A stretch of DNA of 63,811 nt from Tricharina praecox. Its lineage: Eukaryota. The stretch spans positions 806,001 to 869,811 of the forward strand of contig NW_026250419.1 in the NCBI RefSeq assembly GCF_024521635.1. The letters run 5' to 3'. Below the pieces are notes generated by a model. That model was not told where the DNA came from. It did not search any database and saw only the letters and a program-made list of their open reading frames with translations. Shown piece by piece: positions 30,071-60,466 of this stretch. The position numbers and the translations under genes are program-made. Each line of letters begins with the position of its first letter. Position 1 is the first letter of the stretch.

Positions 30071-31343
30071 ATGGATCGCCCCAGCGACGATGAAAAGAAC
30101 CTCGAGAATGGGAACTGCGTGACTGGATGTTTGTTGCCTTTCTTCGTTGTTTACTTCTCATCATCTTGATATTGACTATAAACAAACACGCAGGTGATTC
30201 CGCTCCCGCGGCATCGTCGTTCAAGCAGCTGTCATTCCTCGACCGCTTCCTGGCCATATGGATTTTTCTTGCCATGGCCATCGGCATCATCCTCGGTTAC
30301 TTCGTCCCTGAAACTAGTCCCGCGCTGCAGCGCGGAAAGTTCGTCGATGTCTCCATCCCTATCGGTACGTAGCTTCACATTGAATTGAGCCTCCATTTAC
30401 TCGGCTAACATGCATCACAGCCGTCGGTCTTTTGATCATGATGTACCCCATCCTCGTCAAAGTGCGCTACGAGATGCTTCCCAGGCTCCTTCGCCTCCGC
30501 GAGCTCTGGATCCAAATCTTCTTCTCGGTGATCGCCAACTGGGTGATAGCGCCGCTCTTCATGCTCGCGCTCTCCTGGGCCTTCCTCCCGGACCGCCCCG
30601 AGCTCCGCGAGGGTCTCATCCTCGTCGGTGTAGCCCGATGCATCGCCATGGTGCTGATCTGGACCGACCTCGCCGGCGGCGACGGCGAATACTGTGCCAT
30701 GCTTGTGGCGTTCAACAGCATGCTCCAGATCGTCCTCTTCGCTCCGCTCGCGGTCTTTTACATCCGTGTTGTTTCCCGCTCTTCTTCATCCGTCGACATC
30801 AGCTACGAAGTCGTTGCCAAGTCGGTCGCCGTGTTCCTCGGGATCCCCTTGGCTGCCGCCGTCGTCACCCGCTTCGTCGTGCTGTTCGGAATCTTCAAGG
30901 GCGACATCGACCGCTGGAACAAGAACTTTGTCCGCTGGATCGCGCCCTGGTCGCTCATCGGACTGCTGTTCACGATTCTCGTTCTGTTTGCCAGTCAGTC
31001 CCGCAACGTCGTGGGCAAGATCACCTCCGTCCTCCGGGTTTGCGCGCCGTTGGTCGTCTACTTCCTCATGATCTTTGCGGCCTCCGTCTGGGCATGTAGG
31101 TTGCTCGGTCATGGAGGGAAGCGCGCCCGCTGGGGTTACGAAAAGACCGCCACTCAGAGTTTGACCGCTGCGAGTAACAACTTTGAGCTTGCCATTGCTG
31201 TTGCCGTGGCGTGCTATGGTGCTGGGAGCGAGCAGGCCCTCGCTGCAACCGTTGGTCCGCTGGTTGAGGTGCCGGTGCTGTTGGCTCTTGTCGAGGCCCT
31301 GAAGTGGTTGAAGCCAAGGATGAAGTGGGAGGATGACGAGTAG
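30071..31343 (+). CDS. acr3: Arsenite efflux transporter Acr3 (BART superfamily), 383 aa
   Basis: Exons 30071-30128, 30194-30364 and 30421-31343 total 1152 nt. Signatures LSFLDRFLAIWIFLAM, GLLIMMYPIL, GVARCIAMVLIW, ASNNFELAIAVA and VGPLVEVPVL. The exon 1 donor (GTTTGT) was chosen by phase. Confidence 0.95.
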
Positions 31344-33830: not shown

Positions 33831-34045
33831 TTATTCGTAAACACTCACAATGCAGTATCCCTCCGCCTCCGCCTAAACCAAGAGTGTGGTCACCCGTAGA
33901 TATTGCTCCTTATTTATACGGACCACCCGTTCATGTCGTTATCCGTAAACACTCACAATCCAGTATTCCATCCGCCTCCGCCTAAATCACGAGTTTAGCA
34001 ACCCGTAGATATTGATTCTTAGTCATACCGACCACCCCCTCCATG
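33831..34045. repeat. Diverged ~108-bp tandem duplication of the 3' end of the F-box/ankyrin gene
   Basis: 33831-33935 and 33939-34045 share CGTAAACACTCACAAT, TCCGCCTCCGCCTAAA, ACCCGTAGATATTG and GACCACCC. Confidence 0.8.
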
Positions 34046-34710
34046 AGGAGAGCCAAGGCATCGGGTTCAGACCCATTATACCCGCGGGCGCCGTTCTCAA
34101 CCAACAATTTAATCACCTCGAAACGACCACAGTGCGGATCATAAATATAGCTGTTGACGGCGGCACACAGCGGCGCATACCCCCATACGTAGCCGGTGTC
34201 CAGCACTTCATTGACTTTTGCGCCGTAACTCAGCAGGACCTTGCAGCAGGCGAGACTGCCGGCGGGCGTGGATTCCAAGGAATTCCACGAGTAGGCGGCG
34301 ACCGAGAGGGGCGTGTAGTGCGGCGTCGAATTCACATCGGCGCCACGGCTGAGGAGCAGCTCGATGATACTGCTGCGGCCATAGGCTATGGCGTAGATCA
34401 GGAGTGTGTCCCTCTCGGGTAACCCCCTGGAGGTGTTCACTGGGAGTCCGGCGTCGAGGCAGTGACGGAGGAGGCCGAGGATGTTGTTGAAAATGGCGAA
34501 CCGCCATGGGGCACACCGGTGACGGGTTTCGCGGAACGAGCTGTCGGCGGCAACCGCTAACTTGTAGAGCTTTGGCCGCAGGTAGCAGGCCAGGGTGCGG
34601 CTGGTGGAGGCCAAGGCGGCGCGGGATTGGTGGGTGGGCAGGTGCTTGAAGATCTCGAGGAAGATCTCGGGCGGAAGGTAGGGGACCACAGAGTGAACCT
34701 TGCTCGACAT
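33982..34710 (-). CDS. F-box plus ankyrin-repeat protein, 242 aa
   Basis: N-terminal F-box-like YLPPEIFLEIFKHL...AALASTSRTL...LY. Ankyrin repeats TLLIYAIAYGRSSIIELLLSRGADVN, TPLSVAA...CCKVLLSYGAKVN and APLCAAV...VIKLLVENGA. Confidence 0.85.
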   Translation of the reverse strand: MSSKVHSVVPYLPPEIFLEIFKHLPTHQSRAALASTSRTLACYLRPKLYKLAVAADSSFRETRHRCAPWRFAIFNNILGLLRHCLDAGLPVNTSRGLPERDTLLIYAIAYGRSSIIELLLSRGADVNSTPHYTPLSVAAYSWNSLESTPAGSLACCKVLLSYGAKVNEVLDTGYVWGYAPLCAAVNSYIYDPHCGRFEVIKLLVENGARGYNGSEPDALALLMEGVVGMTKNQYLRVAKLVI

Positions 34711-35027
34711 GACGGCGGTGGGGACGAAGCGACTTCAATTTGATTGTGAGGGCGGATAGTAAGTGACGAGTTCAAATGGGGGGGGGGGGGGGTGCAGAGA
34801 TTGGATTACCTTTAAAATTGCGCAGGCAATTTAGATAGAAGCGTGCAGCGTTGGAGGTAGAGAAAGAAGTGAATTCGAGGAGTTCGTGCAGCGCAGGTTA
34901 TAAAGAAGAAGAAGGGCCCGTTTGGATGGCCTCAGTTTTCAGTTTCCGGTTTTAGAGCCAAATTCAGTTCCCCACCAGGACACCGAATTGTTCAATTTCA
35001 GTTTCCGGAAAACCTTGAGGTGAACTG

Positions 35028-35663: not shown

Positions 35664-36482
35664 GTGCCAAAAGCTATGGCATTACAGACGTTTGCCGTTA
35701 AAGTAATTGAGGTATTAGGGCACGAGCATCTCGGGCGGCATGTCTTCTCTCTACCGCAACCGTACCACCCGTGAAACTTACATCGAGGTGTGGTGAAAGG
35801 CTTGATGGAGCAGCAGAAAAAGGTTATTACACACTTCCAGCATGGTGGATTGCGAGCTGTATCCACCTGGTGAATGATCGCCATGTTGATTTGATGGAAC
35901 AGGTTGTTCTTTGAGCTGGCAGGAAATGGTACTGCCATCGCATACTTGAAGGATTTTATACCCGATACGATTCTTACACCCCGTAAAACATGCAGTATGT
36001 AGAATCGACAAGGTCGCTTCTACATCGGCGATCAAAGAATATCACTAGACTCCGTGCTGGATATCGAAATTTCCCTGCGTCTTGGTCTTGCAGTTGCAAG
36101 TATTGACACCTCCAGATTACACGCCTCGAGGAATTCTAGCATCGGCTGAGGTCAATGTTTTGATGAAAGCCCCGTAAAGATCTAGAGATCTCTGTCGTTT
36201 TGTCATCTCGAAAGCAGTGTTCTACATAGTCCAGTCCAGTTAGGCCCAGTCAGTCCGGGCCCGGACCCATAGACGAGACGTACTATTTTTGCAGCGCAAG
36301 CGGCGGAGAGGGTTGAGCAGGGAGGGTTGAGCGGAGAGCAATAGGGAACCCGTATCGAGCTCGCGGCCATCGGTCGGCGCCAGAGACCCAGTGGAAACGG
36401 GTATGTAATCTGCCATGATCCAACAAGGTTGAATGCAATGATGATTAAACTATAAAGGAGCCGGCATCACAAGGCGTGCCAT

Positions 36483-36758
36483 GTCACGTGATGACTGCTA
36501 CCGAGTGAGATTCTGTGCTTCACACATGATGCCAAAAACAAAAACCATCACCACCCCCGGCGGGTGGCTTGGAAACCCAAAGAGCTGAATACATAAGGCA
36601 TTCACCCGGCTTTGAACCGGAGACTTTCCCTCAGCTCCCCTCGTCGATTGCGTGGTCCTAGACTACTAGACCACGCAGGGGTTTTTTCCGTGATGGAAAT
36701 AGCAAATTGGAAAATATGAAGTGGTGGGTGCCCTCCCGCGATGAACAATAACAACAAC
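36483..36758 (-). mobile_element. Dispersed ~280-bp repeat containing a tRNA-derived (SINE-like/Pol III) unit, copy 1
   Basis: High-identity reverse-complement match to 54806-55089. On the minus strand it carries A-box-like TGGTCTAGTAG, T-arm/B-box CCGGTTCAAAGCCGG and a (TTTTTG)n tail. Abuts a C46 run at 36776-36821. Confidence 0.7.
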
Positions 36759-36774: not shown

Positions 36775-36821
<47 letters not shown>

Positions 36822-36823
<2 letters not shown>

Positions 36824-37170
36824 ACGCACGGCGCGGATGGTGTCGCTACAAGACCTAGACTCGGAAGCACCTCTTCAATTGCTGCCCGGAATTGAAGAGC
36901 CAGCAGAAGATTCTGTGGGCAGAGGTTCGGGAGCAGACGGGGGGAGGCGAGGATCGCTTTATGATCCGTGACCTCTTAGCAGACGAGCAGTGCAGCCAGG
37001 CCATCTTAGGCTTTCTCGCGGCCACCACTAATGTGGAAGGGCGGATCCCGGAGGTGCTAGGGAAGAGGCGGCAAGTGAGGTGTCCGAGTGGGAGTTCAGG
37101 GAGCGGGAAGAGAGATGGGCGGAGAGAGACGAGAGGAGGAGGCGGGCACTGAGGTCAATGAGCTAGGGTC
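36822..37170 (+). pseudogene. 3' fragment of a non-LTR retrotransposon (Tad1-like LINE) ORF2, zinc-knuckle/C-terminus
   Basis: GWCRYKT*TRKHLFNCCPELKSQQKILWAEVR...IRDLLADEQCSQAILGFLAAT, then frameshifted SEVSEWEFRERE. In-frame TAG at 36856-36858 sits where Q (CAG) is expected. Confidence 0.8.
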
Positions 37171-39269
37171 ACTCCTGCTTATGATCCTTTTGCGCTGCTA
37201 CTACTGCGCTCCTGTAACTGTATGGCAGTATGAACGGAGGGCGCCAAAATACATATCTGACCATATTTATGCCATCACCACCATTTCCTAAAATAACAGA
37301 TGGTAATACCACGATGTTTTCCCGCTTGACATCGTCGCGGGTACCAGTGCCTCGATGTTAAGACATAACCAACCGTCAGCACGAGTCACTTCGGATGATT
37401 CTTTTCCCCATAATAGGTGGTCGTCTCGCGTCCCCCCAATTTTATCCACCAAAACTAATATTCATAACTACCTTCAGTGATCACTCCGCGGAACGGAAGA
37501 ACCCGCACAGTGGAATTTACTAGAGAGATACCCCCTGCGGTCGACTCGAGAATCGCCACAGTAAGGAGGCTGCGGGAGCGGTGCGATGGCAGATCATCAT
37601 CCTCCCACTTCGATGATACTCTTGGAGGCGTTCAACGAAGACTCAAATTCGGCGTCTATCGAGCTGTAGATTAACGCGGTCCGTCACGGTCGACTTACCT
37701 ACCCAGCATTGCATTGCATTCTTACTCAAGTATGTAATTACTAGCATGTGCCATGATTAGAGTATATGCATATATCCAATCAAGGGAGTATGTACTATGC
37801 ATAGGATTTATGCTACCGACATGTAGTACCGGTATCCGGATTCCACGCATGATCGGCCGTTTCACATGGTGCCACTGGGTGAATACGTGTTTTGGCCGCG
37901 TTGGTGATGTAAAAAACAGTGCAGTGCATCGTTGAAGTAGAAATTACTTCCAGTATTTGTTTCCAAGTATGCCACCTTGTTGAATGTTCGGCACCATCAT
38001 ACCGGTGCTCGTGATAGGCGTCGCTATCCAGATACTTTATGCCTGCCGCGAGTATCGATACGGTAAATAATAGCCTGCCCCCCGCCTTCCCTTCCCTTTG
38101 ATTAAGAAAGTATACAGTTGATACGAAACGAGTATCTATCCAGCGCGAAACCAAGATCCCCCACACCTAACTATACAGTACCTACCGTACTTACTTGGTC
38201 AGGTCATACGAGATCAGTGAAGAAACAAACAAGACGAAGAAGAGTAAACAGGTGCTCACTTGCTTGAATAGCCTTCGTTCTGGGCCGGGCACAACTTTCT
38301 TCATGGCCATCTAATCTCCAATTTTCTAGGTAGGTGATGTTGGTACCTACAGCCTACACTAGGTAGAGTAGAGTAGACATCCGCGTCCACCATCCATCCG
38401 AAGAGCTTCACATGCCCCGCCATGTCCGCCGGCCGCTCCTGCTGAATCTGCAGCTCCATTCTGCATCATGACGACTGTGGCTTTTCCTCAACTCTACGCC
38501 GTAGCATACCAAATTCACATGCTTCCTCGTCCACTCCACCAACAATCAAAATTATAGGTGACACCTGCATAATTATATCCTCATGTTTCATGTCACCGCT
38601 CCACTTCACCCCTGCACTGACCCAGCCTATCGGTAGCCTAAAAGATACTCATACAATAAGGAATAAAAGAAATCCCACGCTCAAAACTCAGTAGAAAAAG
38701 AAAAAAACACCTGCAAGGCAATCAAGAAAACAAGTACAAAAAACGCCTTTGGCGCCCCGTCCCCGGACCAAAATTCAGAAGCCAGCCTGCTCAACGAACC
38801 ACGCAAGTCCAAACGAGAAAAAAAAAATGGAAAAAACCCGTCCCTGTCCCCAAACAAAGTAAGAAAAGAACGCTGCTCTAAGCTAAGCGAGGGGAAGAAA
38901 GAAAGAACACCCGAAAGAAATTATTACAAAGTGTAATATCGTAAAGCAAAGTAAAATAAACCCCGAAACCGCACCGAAGCCCAGACGTAAAAGAGAAACC
39001 CCCGAAAAGCTGAAATGGAAACGAAGGGTGGATAACGATGACAGAAACACCAAAAAGATTGAAAACAAGATGCAAATGCTAGATCACCCCATCTACCAGC
39101 CTTCCGTCCGTCCGATGCGATGCCGATGCCGATGCCGATGCCGATGAGCGCCCCGTGCCGAAAAAAGGAACAATTGGAAAGAAAAAAAAAGAAACTGGAA
39201 AACTCGTGATACAACCCGTAGAAGGATCAAAACGAAGGGACGGAGTTCCCGCAAATCAACCGCAGGGTA

Positions 39270-42200
39270 TTAGCCCGAATCCTCGACCCCACAGATCCAT
39301 CTGCCAACGCCTTCTGTGAGACAGTTGCCGCCCCATCGGGCTCCAGGATCGCCATTGACCACTTCACCGACGACACGTTGAAGTGCGCCCAAGATGGCAT
39401 CCTTGCATTTGCCACCTTCACATTCGTCAATCACTCGCTCTACTGCACTCGCGAGCGTGTCATCGACATCGACCAGGATCTCCTCATCAATGATTTCCTC
39501 CTCCTTTTCCTCGAGGCCGACAGCGAGATATCCATTGAACTGTCCCTGCAGCGGGGTCACCATGCTCTGCGACGCCTTCTTTGTCCGCCGCCGAAGGCGC
39601 ATCCGCTTGATCTGCAGCCGCTTTGTGTCTGCGATCAAGACCTCGGAGACGGTGGTCCACTTATCGCCACCGGGGGTGGACGAAGAACCGGTTTCCGACC
39701 AGGGAGTGAGGCCCGTGGAAGCAGGAGTTGGCTCGCTACGCATAGCGCGTTGGATGTCTGCTTCGATCTCAGCATACGGCTTGACCGCCTGGAGGACAAA
39801 GTCCGGATGGAAGCGCTCGTCCTCGATCCAGCCAGCCACATTATAGCTTTGGTCATCGTCGGGGTGAACGGTGGGAGGTGGTGGAGGGACGAAAGGACGT
39901 CCCATACCAAGACTCGAGTGCAAATGCGGCATCGCCCACGACGATGGAGGTGACGACAGCGGCGAGGTGAAGTTGACGATGGAGAGGTCTAGGGGAACAT
40001 TGATAGCACCGTCCACATCATCTACCGAGAGTTGCTCCATCGCTGGCAGTGATCCAGTGAGGAACGGCGAGAATGGTTGTGGCGGTCCTTGGGATGACTC
40101 ATCGTCAAGGATGTAATTCATATCCAATGGTTCCTCATCGTCATGTCCCTTCGACGACGACGACAATGTGACGCGACGCTGCTGCTGCTGCGCAACATGC
40201 TCCTCGGGCTGTAAGGACGCCTCACTCGTGGCTGTAGATGAGCGTGACTTCGGATTGCTCCAGAAACTGAGAAAGCTACCCCAGCCGGTCGAATCCATGG
40301 AGGTGTTTGTGGTTCCGGACCTCTTGAGCGTCGACATGAGATTGATGCTGGCGGCGCTTCCACTGCTGCCAGGCCGTATGATCCCACGGGCACCTGCAGG
40401 AGCGCTGGCCACACACGTCGCCGAACTTGGTAAGGTGACGAGTGTTGTTCCGGTGCTCTCTCGTTGGTTGCGCAAGGAGGTAGGAACCGGTGGCAAAGGC
40501 AACACCGACGAAGATGAGAGACTACTGCTGCCGGTGGGTATGGTCCAGCCAGCCAAACCGGCTCCATCGACGCCATCGTCCGGTTCGCTCTCGCTGGACA
40601 CCGCCATGTTGAGTTTGCTGGGCTTCTTCCTGGCCTTTCGTCTCAGCGATCCGCAATTACTCACGGGCGCGCTAATGCTTCCGGTTGCAAGGAAGCTCGG
40701 CGGCGATTGAGAGAGATGGTGAACTGAGGAAGCTCTGGATGGGGAAGGTAAAGATTCTAAGGTCTGGTGCGCCTTGGCTGGTAGGAATGCCGAGAGGAGG
40801 TATATTAACCTCCTAGCGGAAATCCGATCCGAAGTCATTATGATGGTCCTCCTGGGAATCGCACTATCCTCCGGATTACTCCGCGCTTCAAGTTGCTGCT
40901 TGTGACGCCGTTTGTAAGCGTCGGGTCCCAGCACATCGAGCCATTCCGTATGGTGACCGAGGAAGGATGTAAGCAGGGTGAGGAAGAAACTGTGACACAA
41001 CAGCAAGTCAAGTCAGCAAACTGATCCCCCCTTCCCAGTAACAAATGCGATGCGCAGCAACAAGGTGCAGAAAACAACATGGATAAAAACGCGAGTCAAA
41101 CGAGAAAAAGGAGCAGAGGTCAACTGACAAATTCATATCCCTGCCGCCAAAGCGATGATTCGCCCATTTGGCTTCCTCCTGCCAGAGGTCCCATCGGCCC
41201 TGTCCCACCACTACGCGAGGCATGCTGATTCCAGTCACAACGCGCCACCGCATGCGTTCCACCTCGGATCGCACAACGTCGTCACGCATCAGCGCCATCC
41301 TGCGCAGTTCCGGTCTGTTGCTCAGGTACTTGCCACCATGAACACCGGAACCCGGTTGCGGCGACATCAAGCGCGCCGAGGTGAGGTTTTCGAGAATCCG
41401 TGCCTGAGCGATCCGTTGAAGATCCGACAGCGCCCGACTGATGACGTCCCAATGCTTGGTGATGAGATCCATCCTACCGTCGCTAGCCGCTGCTGCGGCA
41501 TGCAGATCATCCAGCCCACAACCCGATCTGAGTCCTCCGGCTGGCAGGGATTGGTGGTGATAATGCTGGTACTCATCGTCGAAGAAGCTCGGTGGCGTAG
41601 GACAGCAGTATTCGTGGCGGTGAGGGGGAAACTCGGAATCGTACGACAGTAATGGCTTGTGCTGGCAACATCGCATCGGAAACGAGCCGGAAGGGGAAGC
41701 GGAAGCAGGGGGCAGGTATATGATCAATCCAATAGCGAACATGGATGACTTCAAAGGCTTGATCAGCTTCGGCGCAGTGGAAGCGGTGCTACCGTTGCTA
41801 CTCGTCTGACCACCAGTCTTTGGGAAGGGGAACCCGTTTGTGGAACCGACTGAGCTCGCTGGGGTTGACAGCAGATGCTCCCCGGATCCCGATTGGGGTA
41901 TGGTGCGTGCGCCGCCGCCGACGCCTCCATCGACGATCGTCGGTGTGGAACAGGGGGGTACGGCCACCGAGAATAGTCGAGTGATCAGCACAGCTTTGCG
42001 CTTCTCCTTCTCCTTCCCCTGCTGCTGCTGTGGCTGCTGTGGTTGATATGTCGCTTTGTGACGATCGTCGCGCACCGATCCACTCCTCGAAGGAAACAAC
42101 GTGCTGGTGACCGAAGCCCTGCGTTCCTCAATGGCAGGCAAAATGTGTACCTTTGTCGACGGTCCTTTGTACGACAATGGAGCCACACCAAACATGCAGT

Positions 42201-42774
42201 CCGTAACGACCCTCAACTCATCATCCGGGCCACCAGGGACACAGCCACCACCTCCTCCCAACGCTGACGCATGCTGCCCGCCGGCCGAGTACTGATTCCG
42301 TCGACGGGACCATCCCAAGGGGCCAGGCGCATTGCCACCGCCAGGAGCACCAAGCGTCGGTGATGTTGGACCTTCCTCAAGCGGCGGGCCGGTCGAACCC
42401 TGGAGATGTGGTGGTTGTTGTGGCGGTGGTTGTGATTGCGGTGGAAGCGCGCTACTAGGCTTAGAGTCGTAGACTACGAGCTTAATGTGCTCGGAAGCGA
42501 CAGCGTCTTGTGCGATTATGACGCGCACATCCCGAGAAGCTTCGAGGTCAACGTTGTCGGCGGCGCCATAACTGCTCACGCTGCTCTGCGACTGCGCGAG
42601 GCTGAACGACGAGTGGAAGGAGGAAGCGACCGAGGAGGTGGAGGAGGAATCGGGGTATAGTAGGTTTCGTGTGTAGAGCTCGTCGCTCTCGAGTGCGTGG
42701 GAGGTTGACGGGCGCGTTCCGCTGGGGGATGTGTTCGCGGTGGATGTAGCGGTGCTGAAGAGACGGCCGAGCAT
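39270..42774 (-). CDS. lst4: Folliculin-interacting protein / Lst4 homolog (FNIP_N longin domain), 1121 aa
   Basis: Exons 42774-41129 and 40989-39270 total 3366 nt with a 139-nt GTCAGT..CAG intron. Motifs DVRVIIAQD, DCMFGVAPLSYKGPSTKVHILP, VLITRLFSV, NFFFLTLLTSFLGHHTEWL, RTIIMTSDRISARRLIYLLSAFLP and FHPDFVLQAVKPY. Confidence 0.85.
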
Positions 42775-43655
42775 GTTTGCGCGCGACTGTCAAATATCGA
42801 ATAGGTTTTGAGTAGTACGGAACTGACGGCGCGAATTTGAGGCAAGGTAAAAGGCGCGATATTGTGGGGGAGGGGGTTTAATTACGCCGTAACTGGGCGA
42901 AAGCCATGGTCGCAAACGGGTTCAGAAGTGTGATGAAGGGGGGGCAACGAGAATAGGCTCGGGTTAAGTATTGTGGGTTGTGGACAGTGAGCTGTGATTG
43001 TGGGATGTGTGGGATGTGTGGGATGTGTGGGATGTGTGGGTTGTATGGGTTGTGTTGGTGATGATAGCTAAGCTACGGATGGGCTATTCTATGGAAGGGG
43101 GAGGGGTGGGTGTATGAGGGAGTGAGTGAGCACAGCTGTGGACGGGGTGGATTTCGCCGTGGGAAGGGAGGTGTTGGGGGAGGGTTCAACGGCTTAGGTG
43201 GAGGGAGCGGTGGGTATAGTAGTATGTAGGATGAAGGGACGAAGGGAGAGCTGTTGGAAGCTGGGGGGGGTGGGATAAGCTCGGGCTCAGGGAAGGCAGT
43301 TGAGCAGGATGGGCGAAGCGAGAAGCGAGCAGGTGAGAGAGTGAGAATGTCCGAGAGGACAGGAACTCAAATAATCGAGCTTCGAAGGGGGTGTGAGAGT
43401 CCGGTTTAGCGTGTCGCGTGCGTTGCTTGCGTCTCACACACTCGAGAGTCGAGAAGGTGTCGGTGTTTCACAACGATCCAGCTTGCGTATGCGACGTTGT
43501 AGACGGAGGTATATATGGCTGTATCGTCGAGTGAGTGGCCGGCGACAAGGAGAGAGGGGAGAGAGAGAGATTAACCCTGTGCTGAGGATGAGAGCAGAGC
43601 GATGGCCGAGAGGAGATGAGGGCTTAGAAGTCGCGAGGAGGGGAGAGTGGCTGCT

Positions 43656-51590: not shown

Positions 51591-54500
51591 CATCATCATC
51601 ATCATCGTCAGCCACCATTCCATCCTTCCATCCATCCGCCCATCCGCCCGTCACCGTCACGATGGCATAGAAGCGTTACGCAGAGCAAACCGCATCTTCC
51701 GAGTATGCCCGGCCATGCTGCCATCGAGATCCACCGGACAGGCAAAGCAAATACGTATGAAAACAACCCACGGGGCCGCGGAGTAGGTTGAAGTAGTTAC
51801 CGTACCCAGGTGACGGACGGACGGTAGTTGAGAAACCGATGTTCACCGTCGATGCCGATACATCATACGACGTGGCAAAGCAAAACAAACAAGCCACACG
51901 GAGGATACCCACTCTTCTCTACGGTACTATACACGCAGATGGATATCGGTACCTTCCTCTATCTACTGCCTACCAGAGTATGATTGTTCACTGACTTCTG
52001 ACTCGTGTGTACATGGTTAACTACCGCATGTACCCCCCACATCTCGAGATCGAACCCCTCGCACACAGCTCAATCCGAACTCAATCCAAATCCAATCCAA
52101 TCCAATTTCGAATCCAGCTCCCTCGCCCTCCTCCTCGTCCTCCTACTCCTCATCCTCCTCCTCCACCTCTCCACCCCCCACCTCACCCCCGCGCACCTCG
52201 ATCCTAACCGCTTCGAGAAAGCCCATGCGCATCCCCGCTAAACCGCATCCGATTTCTCCGACCTGATCCGTGAATGCACTAGTGGTTATCAGGCTAAAAA
52301 AGGACCGCGGAGAAACTCGCTTGACACAACAACTATGCTTGCGGGGATCAATAGCGACGCTGCACTGTGCAGCTCCGGCGGGGGGGACCCTGAATTGAAA
52401 ATCAACGAGGGGGGCCGGGGGGTGGAGGCGGACAGGACAGGACAGGGTCCACTCCGCTGCTCAGTGCTCACTCTCACGACTGAGCTGAGGATGGAGGGAG
52501 GGAGGGCTGGATGGGAAAGAGGGACGGATGGATGGATGGGAGAGAGGGACGGATGGAGAGGCGGACGGCGACGAACCGTGTTTTGTTTTTCGTCGTACAT
52601 AACGGGGAAGTGGAAGGGACTCGTCTCTCGTCGTCTCGTCTCGTCTTGTCTTCTCTCGTCTTCTCTCGACGGGCATACGTACCCCTCTCGTTCCTTCTCG
52701 CTGTTTCTCGCAGATCCAGGGTAACTACTCCTCTACTCTAGAGTCTGATGCACATGGCCACCGTGACGCCTCCTCCCCCGTGACGTACGTAAGAAAGTAA
52801 GAAACCTGCAAACCTCCATCTAGACTCGAGCCGTACACAACAAGTTTTGCCCCCCTCCAGGCCCCATCCCCAGGGCCTCATCGTTGCAACTTGCGCCCTC
52901 GAGATATGTATCTACCTGGGTACTTATCGAACTACTGCTACTTGTGCTAGGTATAGTAGCGCGGCGCCTGTGCGGTGGCCATGGCTCATTGCTCATGGCG
53001 TGATGTATAGCACGGAGATCTAGATGCACGAGATCTGGATACAAGGTATGTATAGTTACATACTTGTCCCATCCTACGTACATACGTACATACGTACATA
53101 CGGTCCATACATACCGTATACATATCCAAGCGCTGCGGCTGCTCAGTGCTGACGTCGGAGTGGAGTATCGTTGAACTAGGTACTCTACGCAGGGTCCAGA
53201 CAGCTACATAACTACAAGGGGAACCAGAAGGATCTACTGTTCTCCACGTAGATTAGGTGCTAGGCAAAGTACGGTAGGTGGTGGTGATGAACGTCATGTG
53301 ATCGCACTCGACGAATTGCGGGGATGCCATTACCGTTTCCGGGTTATTGCCACCCGCCGTGAGCTTTTGAGGCGGAGGGCGGAGCTCGGAGGTTTCAATA
53401 TATACCCAAGTACTCTATCTAAGTGTGTAGCGGGTAATGACGCTCAAACGACCGGACATGCGGCCTCACGCTCCTGCTACCTACTGAGTACTCTACTCTA
53501 CATACAGGCTGCACTCGCCCGTCCAGGCAGAATGGCAGAATGTCGTTGGTGGCTTCCGAAGCTGCGGAAGGACTCTCGTCGGCCGTAGGGCAAGCGTTAT
53601 GACGCAGTAGATGCCCGGAGTCCGGAGGCTTTAACGTTGCTCGGTTGCGGATTCCAACTGGAGTGGGTATGTAGTACCGTGTGTACTTAGGCATGTCGAT
53701 GCGCTGGAAGTGAGTGAGCCTCGTGTTTCGTTAGCCTCGGATACTATCATATCGTACTGCTAGTAGCAGCCAGCGGAGTGGCGACGGTTTGCGTAGAGTT
53801 GGGTGGTTACTTTGTTACTGGAGTCCGGCCAGCAGACGGAGGTATCTCGCGCGGTGAATCCTCCGGAATGATATCATGTGACCCGTGGGCGGCGGCCACG
53901 TTGGTGGCGTTTGTAGATCGGTCGGCGATAGCATGTACTGAGTACATAACATGCATCCCCACGGAAGGGAGTATGCATGGACTTGAGTCATCCTACTATA
54001 GCTGCTAGTGGATTATGGCTACGTACATACTCCAGCTGCTTCTCTAGCCTCGCCGTCGACTGTCTTCACTCTTGAGACGACGCCCGCATTGCCCTGAACG
54101 TTGCATCGCCGGGAGAGGCCGATAACCCTGTCGGCTGAGTTCCGGTACGAACGGAGTTAAGCAGGGGATTGCTAAGTGAGACTCACATTGGGTCTTCGAT
54201 GCCGTGGAGAGAAAGATAGGAAGCCACCTAGATCTTGAGAGAGGGTAGAAACCACTGTTATCACTCGCAACGCCGAAGGGTTGAACGCTTGCGTTTGTTC
54301 TACATACCGAGGCATTCGATTCTCCACTCTGGCTCGGCTACGCAACCATTCTTCAAAGTTGCTGTGCACAGTCCGCAGTCCAGGCAACTGGTTGGGTGTG
54401 GAAGCTCCGTCTCCGCCTGGGCACCGAGAAGTGATGAGCGCACCAGCAGAGGAGCGGGTGAAGAGCAAAGTGCAGTGTCCGGAGCAATTCTTGCAGTGTG

Positions 54501-54805
54501 TTACGTATTCTTGGGTCGGCCTAGCTATCCTCGTATATGCCACTTTCCGATCCGGCCCCTCATACCGGTCTATGCGCATGTGCTTTCCCCAACAGTGGTA
54601 TCCTTCCGACGGAGGACTCAGGAGGTATCAAGAGTACATACTTCGCTTCTTCGAAGGCACATCTCCTTTGCGGAGGCCAGTGTCTCGGAGCGTCGAAGCA
54701 GGAGATATATGCCGCAGCGTGAGATGGAAGAATCATCTAGACGCTCAGCTGCGGGGGGGGGGGGGGGGAGCAAAATATGCACCGACTTAACGGGTGTCAC
54801 TTCAT

Positions 54806-55089
54806 CGTCGCTGTTACTGTCCCATCGCGGGGTGGCACGTACCACTTCATATTTTCCAATTTGCTATTTCCATCACGGAAAAAACCCCGCATGGTCCAGT
54901 GGTCTAGGGCCACGTAATCGACGAGGGGAGCTGAGTGAAAGTCCCCGGTTCAAAACCGGGTGAATGGCCGTATGTATTCAGCTCTTGGGGTTTCCAAGCC
55001 ACCCGCCGGGGGTGGTGACGGTTTTTGTTTTTGTTTTTGACATCACGGGTGGGGCATGAAATATCACTCGACAATATGTCGTCACGTGA
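54806..55089 (+). mobile_element. Dispersed ~280-bp repeat containing a tRNA-derived (SINE-like/Pol III) unit, copy 2
   Basis: A box TGGTCCAGTGG at 54892-54902 lies within a D-arm. B box GGTTCAAAACC at 54947-54957 lies in stem CCCGG/CCGGG. T-runs at 55022-55038 and a G16 run at 54753-54768 upstream. Matches 36483-36758 in inverted orientation. Confidence 0.7.
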
Positions 55090-55244
55090 TACGTCTTGCG
55101 CTGCCACCTGTGGAGGTGATAGGTTGCATGTGAAAATCTCTCTCTCTCTCCCTGTAGAGGTAAGGACGGGTGAATAATTACCATTATCTACATAGGTCGC
55201 ATGAAATCAATGAATAGACTCAAAAATGTGGAGGCCTGGTGTTG

Positions 55245-55485
55245 TACTGGTTGAGGGGGCGGGGGCCCTCCACTCCGCGTGCGGTGGGGTTGTCAGCTGC
55301 TCGTTTGGCCCATTCGTCGGCCTTCTCGTTTCCGGGGACGCCTTTGTGTGCTGGGCACCATCTGATAATGGTGATCTCGGACTCCCTTCGACGGAGGCGG
55401 CGATGTGCTTTCGTGCCTGGAAGGCGTACTTCTGTCTTGGGGCGGGGCATCGTACGTCTTCCTTCTAATAGCCGCCTGCGCATCT
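55245..55485 (-). pseudogene. RNase H fragment of a Tad1-like LINE
   Basis: Frameshifted DAQAAIRR / QKYAFQARKHIA / IRWCPAHKGVPGNEKADEWAKRAA, the typical non-LTR RNase H motif. Confidence 0.85.
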
Positions 55486-56223
55486 AACTACCGTTGTAGG
55501 GCTGCGGGCCGGTGTTTTCCGATTCGGTTGCGAGTGCGCCAACATGCTTCGGGCTCCGGCCGGGTATTTTCAGAATCGGTTTCCGAGTGATTCCATATGC
55601 CGGGCTTTAGATAAGGGAATACGCGGCTACAAAAGACGATTGGTGCAAGAGGGATGCAACAAAAGCAAAAGTTTATGAGATTCGCTAGTAATATTCACAT
55701 TTGCAAGTATTCCAAGCAACGCTTTTCTTTCTGCTCCGCCAAAACCCACGACACAACAACCCTCCTTCCTTCCTACAACAACCTCGACCGATCATCCTCA
55801 AGTCTAAGCTTCTCTCTTCAAAAAACTTCCCATTCTCATCTATCTCGAATAATACCTCTGCTCGTCATCCTCAAGTGTAAGATTCTTACTTCCACACCCG
55901 CCCTTCCCATTCTCACCACTCCCAAAGACAATCTCTGGTCATCACAACCGACATCTCTCATCGACCCCCCGCACAATAGCACTGCTACCTCTAATCTCAC
56001 CGCGACACCCACCTCACTTCCTCTACCCACCCGCTCCACATATCTCTCTTTATCCCATCCTACCAGTTCTCCTCTCCTATCCTCTCGCTAGTTGAGCACT
56101 CGTCCTGACTCCTCGACCCCACAGCAGCAGCAACAATATCATAATATCCTCACCACAAGCTTCACTCAAGGTAAATTCACCTCCCCAGATCACTTAATTT
56201 AAATATGTGCCGACACCCTTCAG

Positions 56224-56668: not shown

Positions 56669-57787
56669 AGGAAAGCCGGCCTGGCCACCGGCGAGGAGCG
56701 TTTTTTGCTGCCTCGTCGGGGTTTATAGAGTGTATAGGCAAGTAGGACACATAAGTGCCTACTTGTCCAATGAATAAAGTATTATTTTTAATTTAGCCAG
56801 CGCAGTCTTGGATCGAAATCGCGTGATTGATTTCGGCTCTGTTCAGTGATAACTAATATATATAGAACCGGTGAGTATACCTATTACCTAGGTAAATTGT
56901 TGTAATGTAGAGTTGGTACGTACCGAAAATGTAGAGGAAGAAAATTTTCTGGATGGATTGAGAGAGGTACTAAATCTGTAGATATAAATCGTGGTGGATG
57001 TCTGGAATATCCATCCATGAAATTCCGTCTTCACGACAATCACGGCAAGTATCCCCCCAACCGCCCCCCCCTCCCCTCTTCAACCACAACACTCTTTACA
57101 ACCACACTATCTTACCCCCCTCCAACCCCAGTGAAATATTACTCTTTCGGCCATCACTTCCTCATTACTCGGCGACGTTAGAAGAAGGGCAAGAGTCTGA
57201 CAGGCGACCTGTTGAAGAAGACATCGGCGTACGAAACCACCCGCTAGGCCCAAAACGACTTGGATTACGGTTCGTGTATCTGCGGATCCTGAAGGGATTG
57301 CTAATGATTGCCGTGTCGCAAGGACAGCGTCCCCGAGGTGTGGATCGCACGATAAAAGCACAGGCCTCGGTGCAAAAATCCGGGACGAAGAGAACGGTGG
57401 TAGTGAGGGGGGGAGAAAGTGGCAGCGGTGGAGAGGTTAGATTTGTGGAAATTGCTGCGCTATCTACGAAACCCAATCCAAGGCTTGATCGCAACTGTGC
57501 GATCACGTTATTGGGTTGGGGGAAGGAACTGACAGTGTAACTCCACAACTCGCTGGACACCATCGGAACGACACTCGAGACTTCAAGCTTTAGGGGTTTC
57601 AATCGTACATGGATTTCTTCCAGAACGAGTCGCACCATTCAGAAATAACCAAGATTACAACAGAAAAGGCACACACATTCCCCAGCACTATTATTCCCCT
57701 CATTTATCCCGTTACAAACTGCCCGGCGCCCCTGCTAATACAAACTATAGTACCAATCGCCCATCAAGCTTTCTCCACCGCAAAATC

Positions 57788-58105
57788 TCAGACACACGGG
57801 CACCTCATGCTCCAAGCATTGAAATCGAACTTGCTCCAGCCCTCACGATCGACCATGGCACGAGTTCCCGTGCACCCACTCCCCGCGTAGATGGTGCATT
57901 GGTAGTGGCCGCCCGCCCAGCCGGAAACAAAGGGACCGCCGATGAGATTTATGCAGGTGTCGTCGCTACTCACGCCGAGGCAGTTGCGCTTGCCCTGTTG
58001 CTTGCAGAGTTGGAGCGTGCCGCCGTCCTTCCATGGGACGCACCAGGCGTCGACTGTGCTTGCGGCCGTGGCGACGGCGAGGATGAGGAAGGAGGAGCAG
58101 CGCAT
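57788..58105 (-). CDS. Small secreted cysteine-rich protein (effector/antimicrobial-like), 105 aa
   Basis: Signal peptide MRCSSFLILAVATAASTVDA and 8 Cys in the mature part. TATAAAA on the minus strand at about 58243-58249. Confidence 0.85.
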   Translation of the reverse strand: MRCSSFLILAVATAASTVDAWCVPWKDGGTLQLCKQQGKRNCLGVSSDDTCINLIGGPFVSGWAGGHYQCTIYAGSGCTGTRAMVDREGWSKFDFNAWSMRCPCV

Positions 58106-60466
58106 GATCGTTGAAGCTTGAGCTGGAAAGTGGGACTGTGTAGAGGTCTCGGGAGAATATTCCTAATCTTTGATTGATCTGTTGCTTGGTCGATGCCGGT
58201 GATGGTGATGCTCCTTTCGTGGGAGTTGGAGCCTGGAGGGGCTTTTATAACCAGAATATTTCTTGCACATACTGTATGTACGACCTCTAGGATTACGTCG
58301 AGGACTCCGTGAGACCTCTCTTCCAACTGCGCAAGTTCAGCCTCACAGACAACCGCAGTCACAACTGCAGCCGTCACTCGCCATCATTGGACGTCCGAAG
58401 CTGCAAGGCTCTATCCACCAACCAGATACATCTTTCTTCCTCTATTCACCAGCCAGAACGGGCTAGGATCGGAAATGGGTGGCCGATGGTAGGCCAGCCG
58501 ACCGCTGCTAGTGGGTGCGGTCACAGGAGAATGTAATCTCGGGGAGCATCCCTTCAAGCGCAGTAATTGAGCTGAAAGCCCAGTGGCAGGAGGTCAGACA
58601 GGAAGCCTGTCGGACCAAATCGTGCACGAGGAATGGGGGGGGGGGGGCAAATACGAGGATCAGCATGCAAATTGCCGTCGAAAGAGGTAGTCCGCTCGTA
58701 CTGGACTTCCCACGCACTACAAGTGCTGGCTGACTGGTGTTTAGGGCGGCGGGTGACGACGACGCGGCAGAGATTACGGCGAGGGTAGCATCGGTGGCGG
58801 AGGTAGGCGCGTTCCTTCCGCAGCGGAAGCGGAAGGGAGAGGGGGGCATGAGGGACGAGGTGAAAGAGAGGGTAGTACCGGTTCGTCTCGTGTTGCCGCG
58901 TAAATCGAGTACCTAATCAAGGAATACGAGTTTGCAGCAAACGAAAACAGCATACAAGATACTCGTAGTGTGTCTTACCGACTTCTATGGTCCAGAAAGG
59001 TCGTATTCAGTCGGGGGAAAGAAGAATATTATTCGCCAGGCCGTATACCAAGTGATATGAAGTGAAACGAATTACATCAGTGCAGTTTTATTTCTTGGGT
59101 AAAGGACGACTCAGTCCTGACACCTGATTCGGCGAGTCCTGAGTCATCAACGACTCAAGCCGGTGCTTCAAGCAGTAGATGGGGGTGTGTCACCGTAGTG
59201 GTACGGGATTCCATTGGCTGGAACGATCGTTGTCGGCTGGGCGTTTATTCAAGTTCTTGAAGTGGGAGCCAGCGCTTTATTGGCTCGTGTCGATGATGCG
59301 TATTTGTTGACTGTAGCTGAGAGTCGGCCGCAATACGAACCGTGTCATCAGCAGCCTTACTGTTAGTTCATTCGCTACCGGAAATATTTAACTCCTGAGT
59401 CTACAGTCCGCCATATTTTTTCGGACCGAACTGACCGTAGCGAAAGCTGAGGTGAATGCAGTGCATTCATTCCTTCGTTCGGCTTTCCCGGGGGTATTAT
59501 AGTCCTGCGAGCCTATTCGTTGGTGTGTGCAGAAAGCATTGCCGTCGGTTGGTTACTAACAGGCATCCGATCAGCCGTGCGACTTCTGCATGATACGGGT
59601 ATTCAGGTCGGTTTGTCCAGGGTTCGTATGGTGCTACATTGTCCATCCACAGCTCATATCTCCACAGCTCCACAGCTCTAATCTTGAAGTTCTACGAACG
59701 ATCCCAGCTGATAACCGGTGACTGTTCAGCCACAAGCTCATCCGAGCGCGAAGAACCTCCCTACGTATCCGATAGCACACTACTATGCCCTCATTTCCGC
59801 ACTCGGATGCAAGTCGCGCACAGAAGACAGCAGGCCTCGTGTTCTGTATCAGCAGGTGGAGCATCTGGAAAGCGGTGACGTCTCCGGAGCGAGCTGTAGT
59901 AGAGGGTAGTATTCGAGGCCAGGCTGGCGGCGCCGTATGGGCGGGTGAGGCACCGGTGATGGATGGTTTATGGGTATTAGCAGTGTTTATGTGATTGAGA
60001 GAGAGAAAAGCATTGCCTATACTTTGTGAGCGATTTTCCTTGTTTCAGCTTTTTATCGGTGTGAATTCACCCTTCTCGGTCCATACGAAGCCATCATCTC
60101 AGTTGGAATCGCTCCCCGTTCAAGTCTTCACTCTATACCAAGAACGACTCGTCTCCGCATGGTTCCTCTGTTCGGCAACTCTATTACCCGGGGTTCATCT
60201 CATGGTGTTGCAGTTTCTGCATGAAGAAATGCATTACTTCATCATAACTTCTAGAAAAGGATCACCGACATGCTCGGTTGAGGCCTGGGAATACCGGTAG
60301 TCTGTCTGGACGGAAAACTATTAGGGCCTGGCGACGCGGTCCCGTCCGGGACGAGGATTTGCCGGACCAGAGCATCCAGTCCGAAGTCCAAAATGCCCGG
60401 AGTCCGACTGGGACCCCGTAGGGCCTGGAAATGTTTATTGTGGTTCCAGCTAACCGGAAAGCGGTA

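Follow-up and report, generated by a model that had tools for sequence, protein, structure and literature searches.

Background

SINEs are described as elements headed by a Pol III promoter whose 3' end generally derives from a LINE (PMC3747384), and the fungal SINEs presented in PMC5063351 are defined with TSDs. In primates, the snaR genes are reported to encode structured Pol III RNAs of about 120 nt, which are SINE-derived, carry internal indels and have spread in clusters with variable flank (PMC3337139). TRE3 is described as inserting about 100 bp downstream of Dictyostelium tRNA genes (PMC5006619, PMC5911963), and of the genomes that the review covers, dictyostelids alone showed downstream targeting (PMC5911963 / PMC5006619).

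The DNA analyzed here, called the window, is the whole stretch of 63,811 nt. It contains two copies of a small structured unit, which were followed through the genome of this ascomycete (38.4 Mb, 104 contigs), a host that we take to belong to the Pyronemataceae; for one gene of the window, the closest named proteins carry the labels Tricharina (98%) and Pyronema (81-82%). No description of such a family was found in the full text of open-licence papers and preprints.

Anatomy of the two copies

An earlier note, made from the letters of the window, had paired the regions 54806-55089 (+), hereafter copy A, and 36483-36758 (-), copy B, as a two-copy tRNA-headed element. Their homology is confirmed: 241 of the 274 aligned bases are identical over that span, as are 140/151 in the predicted RNA part, and these copies are the sole family members found within the window. 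Both have the D-arm/A-box and the T-arm/B-box and lack acceptor and anticodon stems, as had been described. A tRNA gene was rejected, there being no cloverleaf: ARAGORN gives 0 tRNA genes in the window, and Rfam gives no match over copy A or copy B, no tRNA match, and nothing over the unit in 6 further loci that cover the three types and the second lineage described below.

The long-range stem with the T-arm inside is present, and the CCACCC/GGGTGG hairpin, the (TTTTTG)n run and the TCACGTGA motif lie where they had been placed (Table 1). The CTTGG/CCAAG hairpin proposed beside them can form in 65 of the 90 type I copies, in 0/21 type II and in 0/5 type III copies; in folds of the full predicted RNA its bases pair with the 5' leader instead. 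The length of about 140 nt given to the unit is replaced by about 150 nt for the predicted type I RNA. The sharing of upstream sequence is real, a part of it being the leader and closing stem, since the start of the predicted RNA lies about 14 nt ahead of the tRNA-like head; conservation does run past the predicted Pol III transcript, with at least 30 nt upstream in common for 90/97 copies. The long upstream G tract was rejected as a family mark: 10 G or more within 200 nt upstream are found in 2/116 copies only, A and B themselves, and the window holds six G/C tracts of at least 12. LINE relics adjoin both copies as claimed, that of copy A at about 55230-55490 (-).

Table 1. Features of the window; positions are those of the whole stretch.
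Feature	Position	Strand	Remark
ACR3-type arsenite transporter gene	30384-31343	+	
F-box plus ankyrin protein gene	33982-34734	-	
LINE 3' UTR and tail behind copy B	36308-36456	+	tail-to-tail, antisense to the unit
Copy B T-run (36533-36544) and downstream motifs	36483-36544	-	end is ATCACGTGAC (36483-36492)
Copy B predicted Pol III transcript, type I	36540-36691	-	fold z -3.5
Copy B 3' hairpin	36551-36567	-	
Copy B T-arm	36605-36621	-	
Copy B A-box hairpin	36650-36676	-	
Copy B TATA-like box	36713-36720	-	
G46 tract	36776-36821	-	joint of copy B shared flank and LINE relic
LINE ORF2 3'-end relic	36817-37199	+	head-to-head with copy B
Folliculin-interacting protein gene	39270-42789	-	
Copy A upstream flank	54210-54845	+	about 570-665 nt common to three clade mates: C8:82472, C2:1134171, C14:513400
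G16 tract	54753-54768	+	local expansion of a G-rich spot in the flank of copy A's clade
Copy A TATA-like box	54846-54853	+	28 nt before predicted start
Copy A predicted Pol III transcript, type I, about 150 nt	54875-55026	+	ends in first T5; start predicted from TATA and A-box spacing
Copy A 5' leader	54875-54888	+	pairs with 54987-54995 (closing stem); 94% identity to type I majority sequence
Copy A A-box hairpin (extended tRNA D-arm)	54889-54915	+	95% of cells paired
Copy A type I central module	54928-54984	+	long stem (GAGCTGA 54928-54934 x TCAGCTC 54978-54984) round T-arm/B-box 54944-54960
Copy A closing stem 3' arm (54987-54995) and 3' hairpin (54999-55015)	54987-55015	+	nearly invariant in three types and second lineage
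Copy A (TTTTTG)3 run, predicted terminator	55022-55039	+	T5 in 78/80 type I copies
Copy A conserved downstream motifs ATATCACTCG and TCACGTGA	55061-55090	+	inverted repeat in several type III copies
Two serial short LINE 3'-end insertions at one site behind copy A	55107-55234	+	
(TC)n-tailed LINE piece behind copy A	55117-55150		
A-tailed LINE piece behind copy A	55161-55226		
Target sequence, three copies bordering the LINE pieces of copy A	55107-55116, 55151-55160, 55227-55234		
LINE ORF2 relic (RNase H region) beside copy A	55231-55490	-	

One further observation concerns the gene content of the window. A short cysteine-rich ORF with a hydrophobic N-terminus and no Pfam match (57788-58162, minus strand) looks like a small secreted protein.

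Size and architecture of the family

The unit is far from being a two-copy element. A 26-nt motif of its 3' part has 97 matches in the genome (3 mismatches or fewer) vs 0 for the reversed control, and a profile search gives 113 non-redundant matches in 90 loci. A motif of the 5' part has 73 matches (control 1), of which 19 were new and 17 of these real, and queries with other subfamilies added further copies. The union of the searches amounts to at least 157 places, fragments included, a lower bound in which over a dozen places are known from match tables only. Both ends could be placed in 116 copies (111 in the genome itself and 5 in metagenomes), distributed as follows: 90 of type I, 21 of type II and 5 of type III. 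More type III copies are present on contig C2, where they account for 13 among 27 anchors in the 17 loci examined, leaving out one row labelled III that is a deleted type I.

All three types are built on a common frame: TATA-like box, leader, A-box hairpin, central module, closing arm, 3' hairpin and T-run. The TATA-like box lies exactly 28 nt upstream in 60/80 type I and 12/17 type II copies, a spacing that is constant though the spacer sequence differs between subfamilies. The central modules of the three types are unrelated in sequence, each of them folding into a stem in the one frame, and several copies are chimeras in which upstream, central and downstream modules come from different types. 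The B-box is inside the RNA in 62/90 type I copies and behind the T-run in 15/21 type II copies. Strict patterns recognize the A box in 66/80 type I copies and the B box in 48/80; the T-arm aligns with the genome's own tRNAs. All signals are kept in 22/80 type I copies, A and B included. Downstream of the T-run, TCACTCG (with at most 1 mismatch) is found in 83/90 type I copies. The motifs ATCACTCG and ATCACGTG of this zone (55061-55090) resemble what we take to be bHLH sites of the Cbf1/SREBP type, and the inverted-repeat form of the downstream motif seen in type III also occurs in locus L128.

Scanning JGI metagenomes for the exact motif yielded 6 contigs, i.e. 5 distinct loci, from another lineage; viral contigs gave 0 matches to the 5' motif. 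Similarity between this second lineage and the host genome spans the TATA-like box and the predicted transcript and ends at the T-run, the flanks being otherwise unalignable. No single-copy gene is present on the second-lineage contigs. One of them has a LINE piece about 73% identical to the LINE of the host genome, and locus L130 carries a tailed insertion with a 6-nt duplication at a site that is empty in L129/L132.

Constraint on the predicted RNA

In 12 disjoint pairs of copies with at least 170 nt upstream in common, divergence is 178/1623 (0.110) in the RNA vs 489/3355 (0.146) in the flank (p=4e-4). In copy A's clade the RNA has diverged by 3-7% vs 15-19% for the upstream flank. Across the family the contrast is missing in several pairs (e.g. 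C44/C59, 0.129 vs 0.090; C16/C16, 0.131 vs 0.119). Identity to the majority sequence is 94-95% for the leader, linker, closing arm and 3' hairpin, and 75-79% for the spacers. The mean fold z, from 20 shuffles per copy, is -2.5 for type I (n=90), -1.7 for type II and -1.1 for type III, vs about 0 to -0.5 for flank (0.0 for upstream flank of equal length in type I).

Signals of base pairing are fainter. Stem changes to G-U exceed those to A-C (71 vs 48, p=0.04), a weak strand-specific bias. Covariation is not significant among 36 of the 84 type I sequences, with a double change in 1/26 pairs and a score reached by 114/500 shuffles, and none of the covariation measures exceeds the shuffled level; the single double-changed pair separates the host lineage from the second one. 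The ratio of pair-keeping to pair-breaking changes does not differ between internal (32:40) and terminal branches (133:170). RNAalifold finds almost no consensus structure in 90 type I sequences, which we ascribe to the decay of copies and to indels that were misaligned. For this reason the T-arm was scored alignment-free, and it forms on average 4.2 of 5 pairs vs 3.0 in the control (86 copies). The tree of 80 type I copies, 5 being omitted as duplicates or off-length, is star-like (branch sums 10.5 terminal, 1.9 internal). Selection on the RNA appears to be present but weak, most copies decaying. What is seen would be selection acting on the source copies and then decay, a course as compatible with a selfish element as with a birth-and-death gene family.

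Flanks, ends and known classes

Copies share far more flank than other Pol III loci do. On either side, the longest stretch of shared flank has a median length of 111 nt (97 copies), vs 8 and 21 nt for 31 tRNA/5S loci, and its breakpoints are graded, with no common end. TSDs at the level of the unit, sought as poly(A)-plus-TSD round whole units, are found in 2/111 copies vs a control mean of 1.4, and in 2 vs 1.0 in the antisense version, a test weakened by the age of the copies, whose nearest neighbours show a median divergence of 16%. Unit-level TIRs do not exceed the control, and the 22 candidate empty sites among 116 copies are all due to tandem neighbours or other repeats.

Three readings had been offered for the unit. 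The best fit is the structured Pol III unit present in many copies and provided with an external TATA; the larger mobile unit with defined ends is unsupported, given the graded breakpoints and the lack of TSD, TIR or empty site. Dependence on a LINE is possible, some signs agreeing with LINE transduction. A classical tRNA-SINE (SINE2) fits the head with its A/B boxes. Upstream sharing beyond the predicted transcript rules against it, since copying of the Pol III transcript, as in a SINE, would leave no such flank, as do the absence of TSDs and a 3' end that has no match to the LINE 3' end (12 relics). The family departs from SINE2 in these three defining tests and is therefore not filed there; it is not a classical SINE. 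A 5S-derived SINE (SINE3) was rejected, the 3' part having no resemblance to 5S rRNA beyond chance: the local score against the genome's own 5S is 19.5 vs a shuffled mean of 21.0. Cassandra-type TRIMs have fixed termini, a TSD and an internal region common to paired copies. A solo LTR or TRIM was rejected on the graded breakpoints and on the spacers of same-strand neighbours, which are not common family-wide, and 30 RT loci of 3.5 kb contain 0 unit matches. Nine regions taken as LINE or DIRS candidates have no unit and no intact LINE. Among RT-containing ORFs, those at L164:2044-4491 and L166:3557-5917 (816 and 787 aa) are of neither common LTR type nor LINE, and we assume them to be DIRS/Ngaro-like.

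Genomic distribution

The nearest relative of a copy lies within 60 kb in 12/80 cases vs 1.3 expected (p=2e-4), and within 5 kb in 1/80. Adjacent copies are rarely nearest relatives, so that simple tandem duplication leaves the clusters unexplained. The region C2:0.99-1.19 Mb contains 30 places on both strands with unrelated genes between them, and a copy in this cluster has only about 50-330 bp in common with its best match there, in comparisons unmasked by overlapping neighbours. Copies are enriched about twofold within 100 kb of contig ends (38/89 vs 18.5 expected). The apparent mode of spread is local copying of short patches, and not tandem duplication of large segments.

Two pairs of copies, C1:1883986 with C70:23555 and C27:90683 with C59:19829, are identical over the whole 3 kb compared and would be recent segmental duplicates or assembly duplicates. 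Other Pol III genes are also grouped in this genome. tRNA genes are clustered by contig, with at least 12 near-identical CTT-anticodon copies on C94 and several TCC-anticodon copies on C22, C28 being also listed; the clustered copies occur on both strands and have only about 10 nt of flank in common. The 5S rRNA genes form a tandem repeat with an 8451-nt period on C77, together with dispersed single copies with unrelated flanks (C77 and 17 other places). It may be a general trait of this genome that Pol III genes multiply locally.

A TIR element of about 1.4-1.7 kb, whose termini start with CCCTAGGGTAC, splits one unit inside the A-box hairpin with a 4-nt duplication (L067:4440-6140 = C2:1032940-1034640), and also lies in the flanks of C21:67612, C8:961686, C16:254691 and C83:435631. 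Its termini are found in 17/127 unit flanks, neighbours being counted twice, vs 0/78 control loci.

Association with a LINE

The LINE next to copies A and B belongs to an abundant genome-wide LINE (277 candidates, 150 scored), which we assume to be of the Tad1 clade. The related LINE fragment in locus L131 has a Pfam RNase_H match; no intact LINE RT was recovered from the RT loci examined. LINE pieces are present within 600 nt of 30/80 type I and 9/17 type II copies, vs 4/36 tRNA/5S loci. The LINE tail motif is found 50-300 nt behind the closing arm in 23/108 copies, vs 3 in the like upstream window and 0/35 tRNA/5S loci (p=0.001).

At five unit sites or more the LINE pieces have distinct TSDs: C72:567468, C26:33158, C2:1035579 and C29:268731 each have their own LINE junction and their own TSD, and behind copy A two LINE tails follow each other, with a copy of the target sequence before, between and after them. 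Having TSDs of their own, the LINE pieces are therefore separate insertions and not the tail of the unit. They occur in both orientations; many of the antisense tails share a continuation and may descend from few events. Of the 111 units, only 8 have one of the 144 ORF2-end relics within 1 kb. For LINE 3' ends, the stretch immediately downstream of the terminator is an insertion hot spot, which TFIIIC-related tethering or simply open chromatin might bring about. As regards the LINE itself, two tail types coexist, one ending in an A-run and the other in (TC)n, as in the pieces behind copy A.

Upstream of the units, LINE pieces at 150-900 nt are on the unit strand in 20 cases vs 6 on the opposite strand (p=0.009, for copies that are not independent). 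C8:61642 and C2:1134171 have a common LINE tail joined at the same upstream point; at C2:1134171 the LINE piece starts at the hot spot of the preceding copy, and no TSD is found at C8:61642.

Discussion

The reading that we favor, at about an even chance of being right, is that of a small Pol III RNA gene family, derived from a tRNA/SINE, which would have spread with its promoter by short DNA-patch copying under birth-and-death, in the manner of snaR. From general Pol III biology, TFIIIC would bind the two boxes A and B, of which B is inside the RNA in types I and III and directly follows the T-run in type II; TFIIIB would bind the TATA at -28, and Pol III would make an RNA of 115-150 nt, in copy A from 54875 to the T-run. 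This RNA would fold into the closing stem, the A-box hairpin, a variable central stem and the 3' hairpin, followed by U's. More tentatively, the invariant closing stem and 3' hairpin might be a protein-binding surface, which selection would maintain in a minority of sources, the bulk of the copies decaying. Breaks next to an active unit, plausibly nicks made by the LINE endonuclease in the open chromatin behind it, might be repaired or copied from a unit, carrying 200-900 bp of flank and leaving no defined ends. New copies would mostly land within the same chromosome region, and recombination in the two invariant blocks could swap upstream, central and downstream modules. Copy number, the TATA at -28 in subfamilies and second lineage, shared flanks, constraint on the RNA, fold z and local spread speak for this reading. 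The lack of significant covariation and the star-like tree speak against it, as does the number of intact copies, which is what a selfish repeat would be expected to show. As for contigs, four contig-only sequencing runs were compared. One of them (X1), which we guess to be RNA, has contigs identical to the window elsewhere, e.g. over 57634-58207 and thus over the cysteine-rich ORF, and diverged family contigs over the unit, which extend past the predicted transcript and show neither ends nor strand; the other three (X2-X4) have nothing there.

The same flanks and clusters could have arisen through the LINE, which would copy long read-through RNAs by 3' or 5' transduction, the unit being a passenger retro-copied with its promoter. 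We regard this, the main rival reading, as possible and rather unlikely. Truncation at the 5' side would give the ragged upstream ends and, since the LINE prefers the site behind units, new copies would fall beside old ones and make mixed clusters, in which neighbours are indeed not sisters. The same-strand bias of the upstream LINE pieces fits transduction better than patch copying, and the junction common to C8:61642 and C2:1134171, with a C2 piece that begins at the preceding copy's hot spot, points the same way. Fragments with only the 3' part (9/97) are somewhat more frequent than those with only the 5' part (2/71, p=0.12), and SVA elements are described as carrying 5' and 3' transductions (PMC12593883). 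Transduction is opposed by the near-control number of poly(A)-plus-TSD units in either orientation, in a test weakened by copy age, by the missing TSD at C8:61642, by the lack of a true empty site, and by the regional clustering of subfamilies; one 5'-only/3'-only pair is moreover a single copy split by the TIR element. An ancient ordinary tRNA-SINE, whose retro-copying ceased and which then underwent unselected segmental duplication, its RNA having no present role, would account for the tRNA-like boxes, the star-like tree, the wide decay and the non-significant covariation. We think it improbable: it leaves unexplained the fixed-spacing TATA in three subfamilies and two lineages and the lower divergence of RNA than of flank, copies starting at the predicted +1 are absent, and the unit's 3' end is unlike that of the LINE.

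Two further readings were considered. A DNA-level element, i.e. a TFIIIC/TFIIIB landing pad or a chromatin boundary with incidental RNA, agrees with the conserved signals outside the transcript (TATA, ATATCACTCG, CACGTG), with a B-box that can sit inside or behind it, and with the enrichment near contig ends. The leader, linker, closing arm and 3' hairpin are nevertheless as conserved as the boxes, and the weak G-U bias and a fold stability above that of the flank also make such an element quite improbable. The last reading is a non-autonomous rolling-circle element of the HINE/Helentron kind, in which leader and closing arm would be subterminal inverted repeats and the 3' hairpin an end signal. 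Ragged flank capture and local clustering are Helitron-like traits, and both occur in the family. The imperfect inverted repeat, hairpin and T's resemble the 3' end of HINEs as described in PMC4067079; the boundaries given there are defined and flanked by T's 2-4 nt from the 5' subTIR, whereas here conservation runs on at both sides and there are no 5' T's. The genome has 0 Helitron_like_N matches, in a search where no positive control matched, and its 3 PIF1 loci all lack a Rep motif and have no unit nearby. With no defined T-flanked ends this reading is largely refuted, and we give it hardly any weight.

Returning to the snaR-like family, a bolder version of it is tentative and in our view doubtful: dozens of loci would express the structured Pol III RNAs of a lineage-specific fungal family, in which the centres are exchangeable and the protein-binding frame is invariant, and the family would propagate in partnership with a LINE, such that an active unit draws LINE insertion behind its terminator and these events copy the unit with its promoter. 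If so, fungi would have a snaR-like family of their own, and LINE targeting directed downstream of Pol III units would occur outside amoebae. SINE-like repeats of fungi tend to be classed as inert retro-copies; the Tricharina family breaks the defining rule of SINEs in keeping an external promoter and sharing flanks. Its modular RNA architecture is found again, conserved, in a second lineage, and the family marks a hot spot of LINE insertion. If expressed, it would be an uncatalogued fungal Pol III RNA class and a compact test system for the passage from SINE to gene family and for LINE site choice near Pol III units. Without expression, there would still be a repeat family whose route of copying is unexplained.

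Comparison with known systems

HINE/DINE-1 Helentrons, as presented in PMC4067079, share with the family an inverted repeat, a 3' hairpin and a T-run. The Tricharina family differs in being without defined ends and without a 5' T flank, RepHel was not found, and it has the anatomy of a Pol III promoter instead. Dictyostelium TRE3 and Skipper-2 are described with insertions downstream of Pol III units, at distances from some tens to about 150 bp (PMC5911963, PMC5006619), and a preferred downstream distance with independent insertions is found here also. The strict tRNA-gene targeting given for TRE3 in these sources is not: the Tricharina LINE is genome-wide, has no such insertion zone behind the 35 tRNA/5S loci, and inserts in both orientations.

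The fungal tRNA-SINEs MgSINE, SINE2-1_BG and AfuSINE2 are reported with tRNA-derived A/B boxes, lengths of 140-490 bp, tens to about a hundred copies and a LINE in the same genome (PMC5063351, PMC3747384), all of which brings them close to the present family. In the same sources they have TSDs and several have a LINE-derived 3' end; the Tricharina family has neither. Its copies, in contrast, have upstream flank and TATA in common, and their central modules are interchangeable.

Primate snaR, according to PMC3337139, is Alu-derived, expressed and NF90-bound, and lies in multi-kb duplicons and tandem arrays, whereas the fungal family is of tRNA-like origin, has a conserved upstream TATA, lies in patches of 200-900 bp between unrelated genes, and has an RNA predicted from sequence. 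The likeness would be that of a structured, SINE-derived Pol III RNA remodelled by indels, carried with variable flank and gathered in non-random clusters (PMC3337139). As an analogy, and with no homology claimed, it is primate snaR that the family would work most like.
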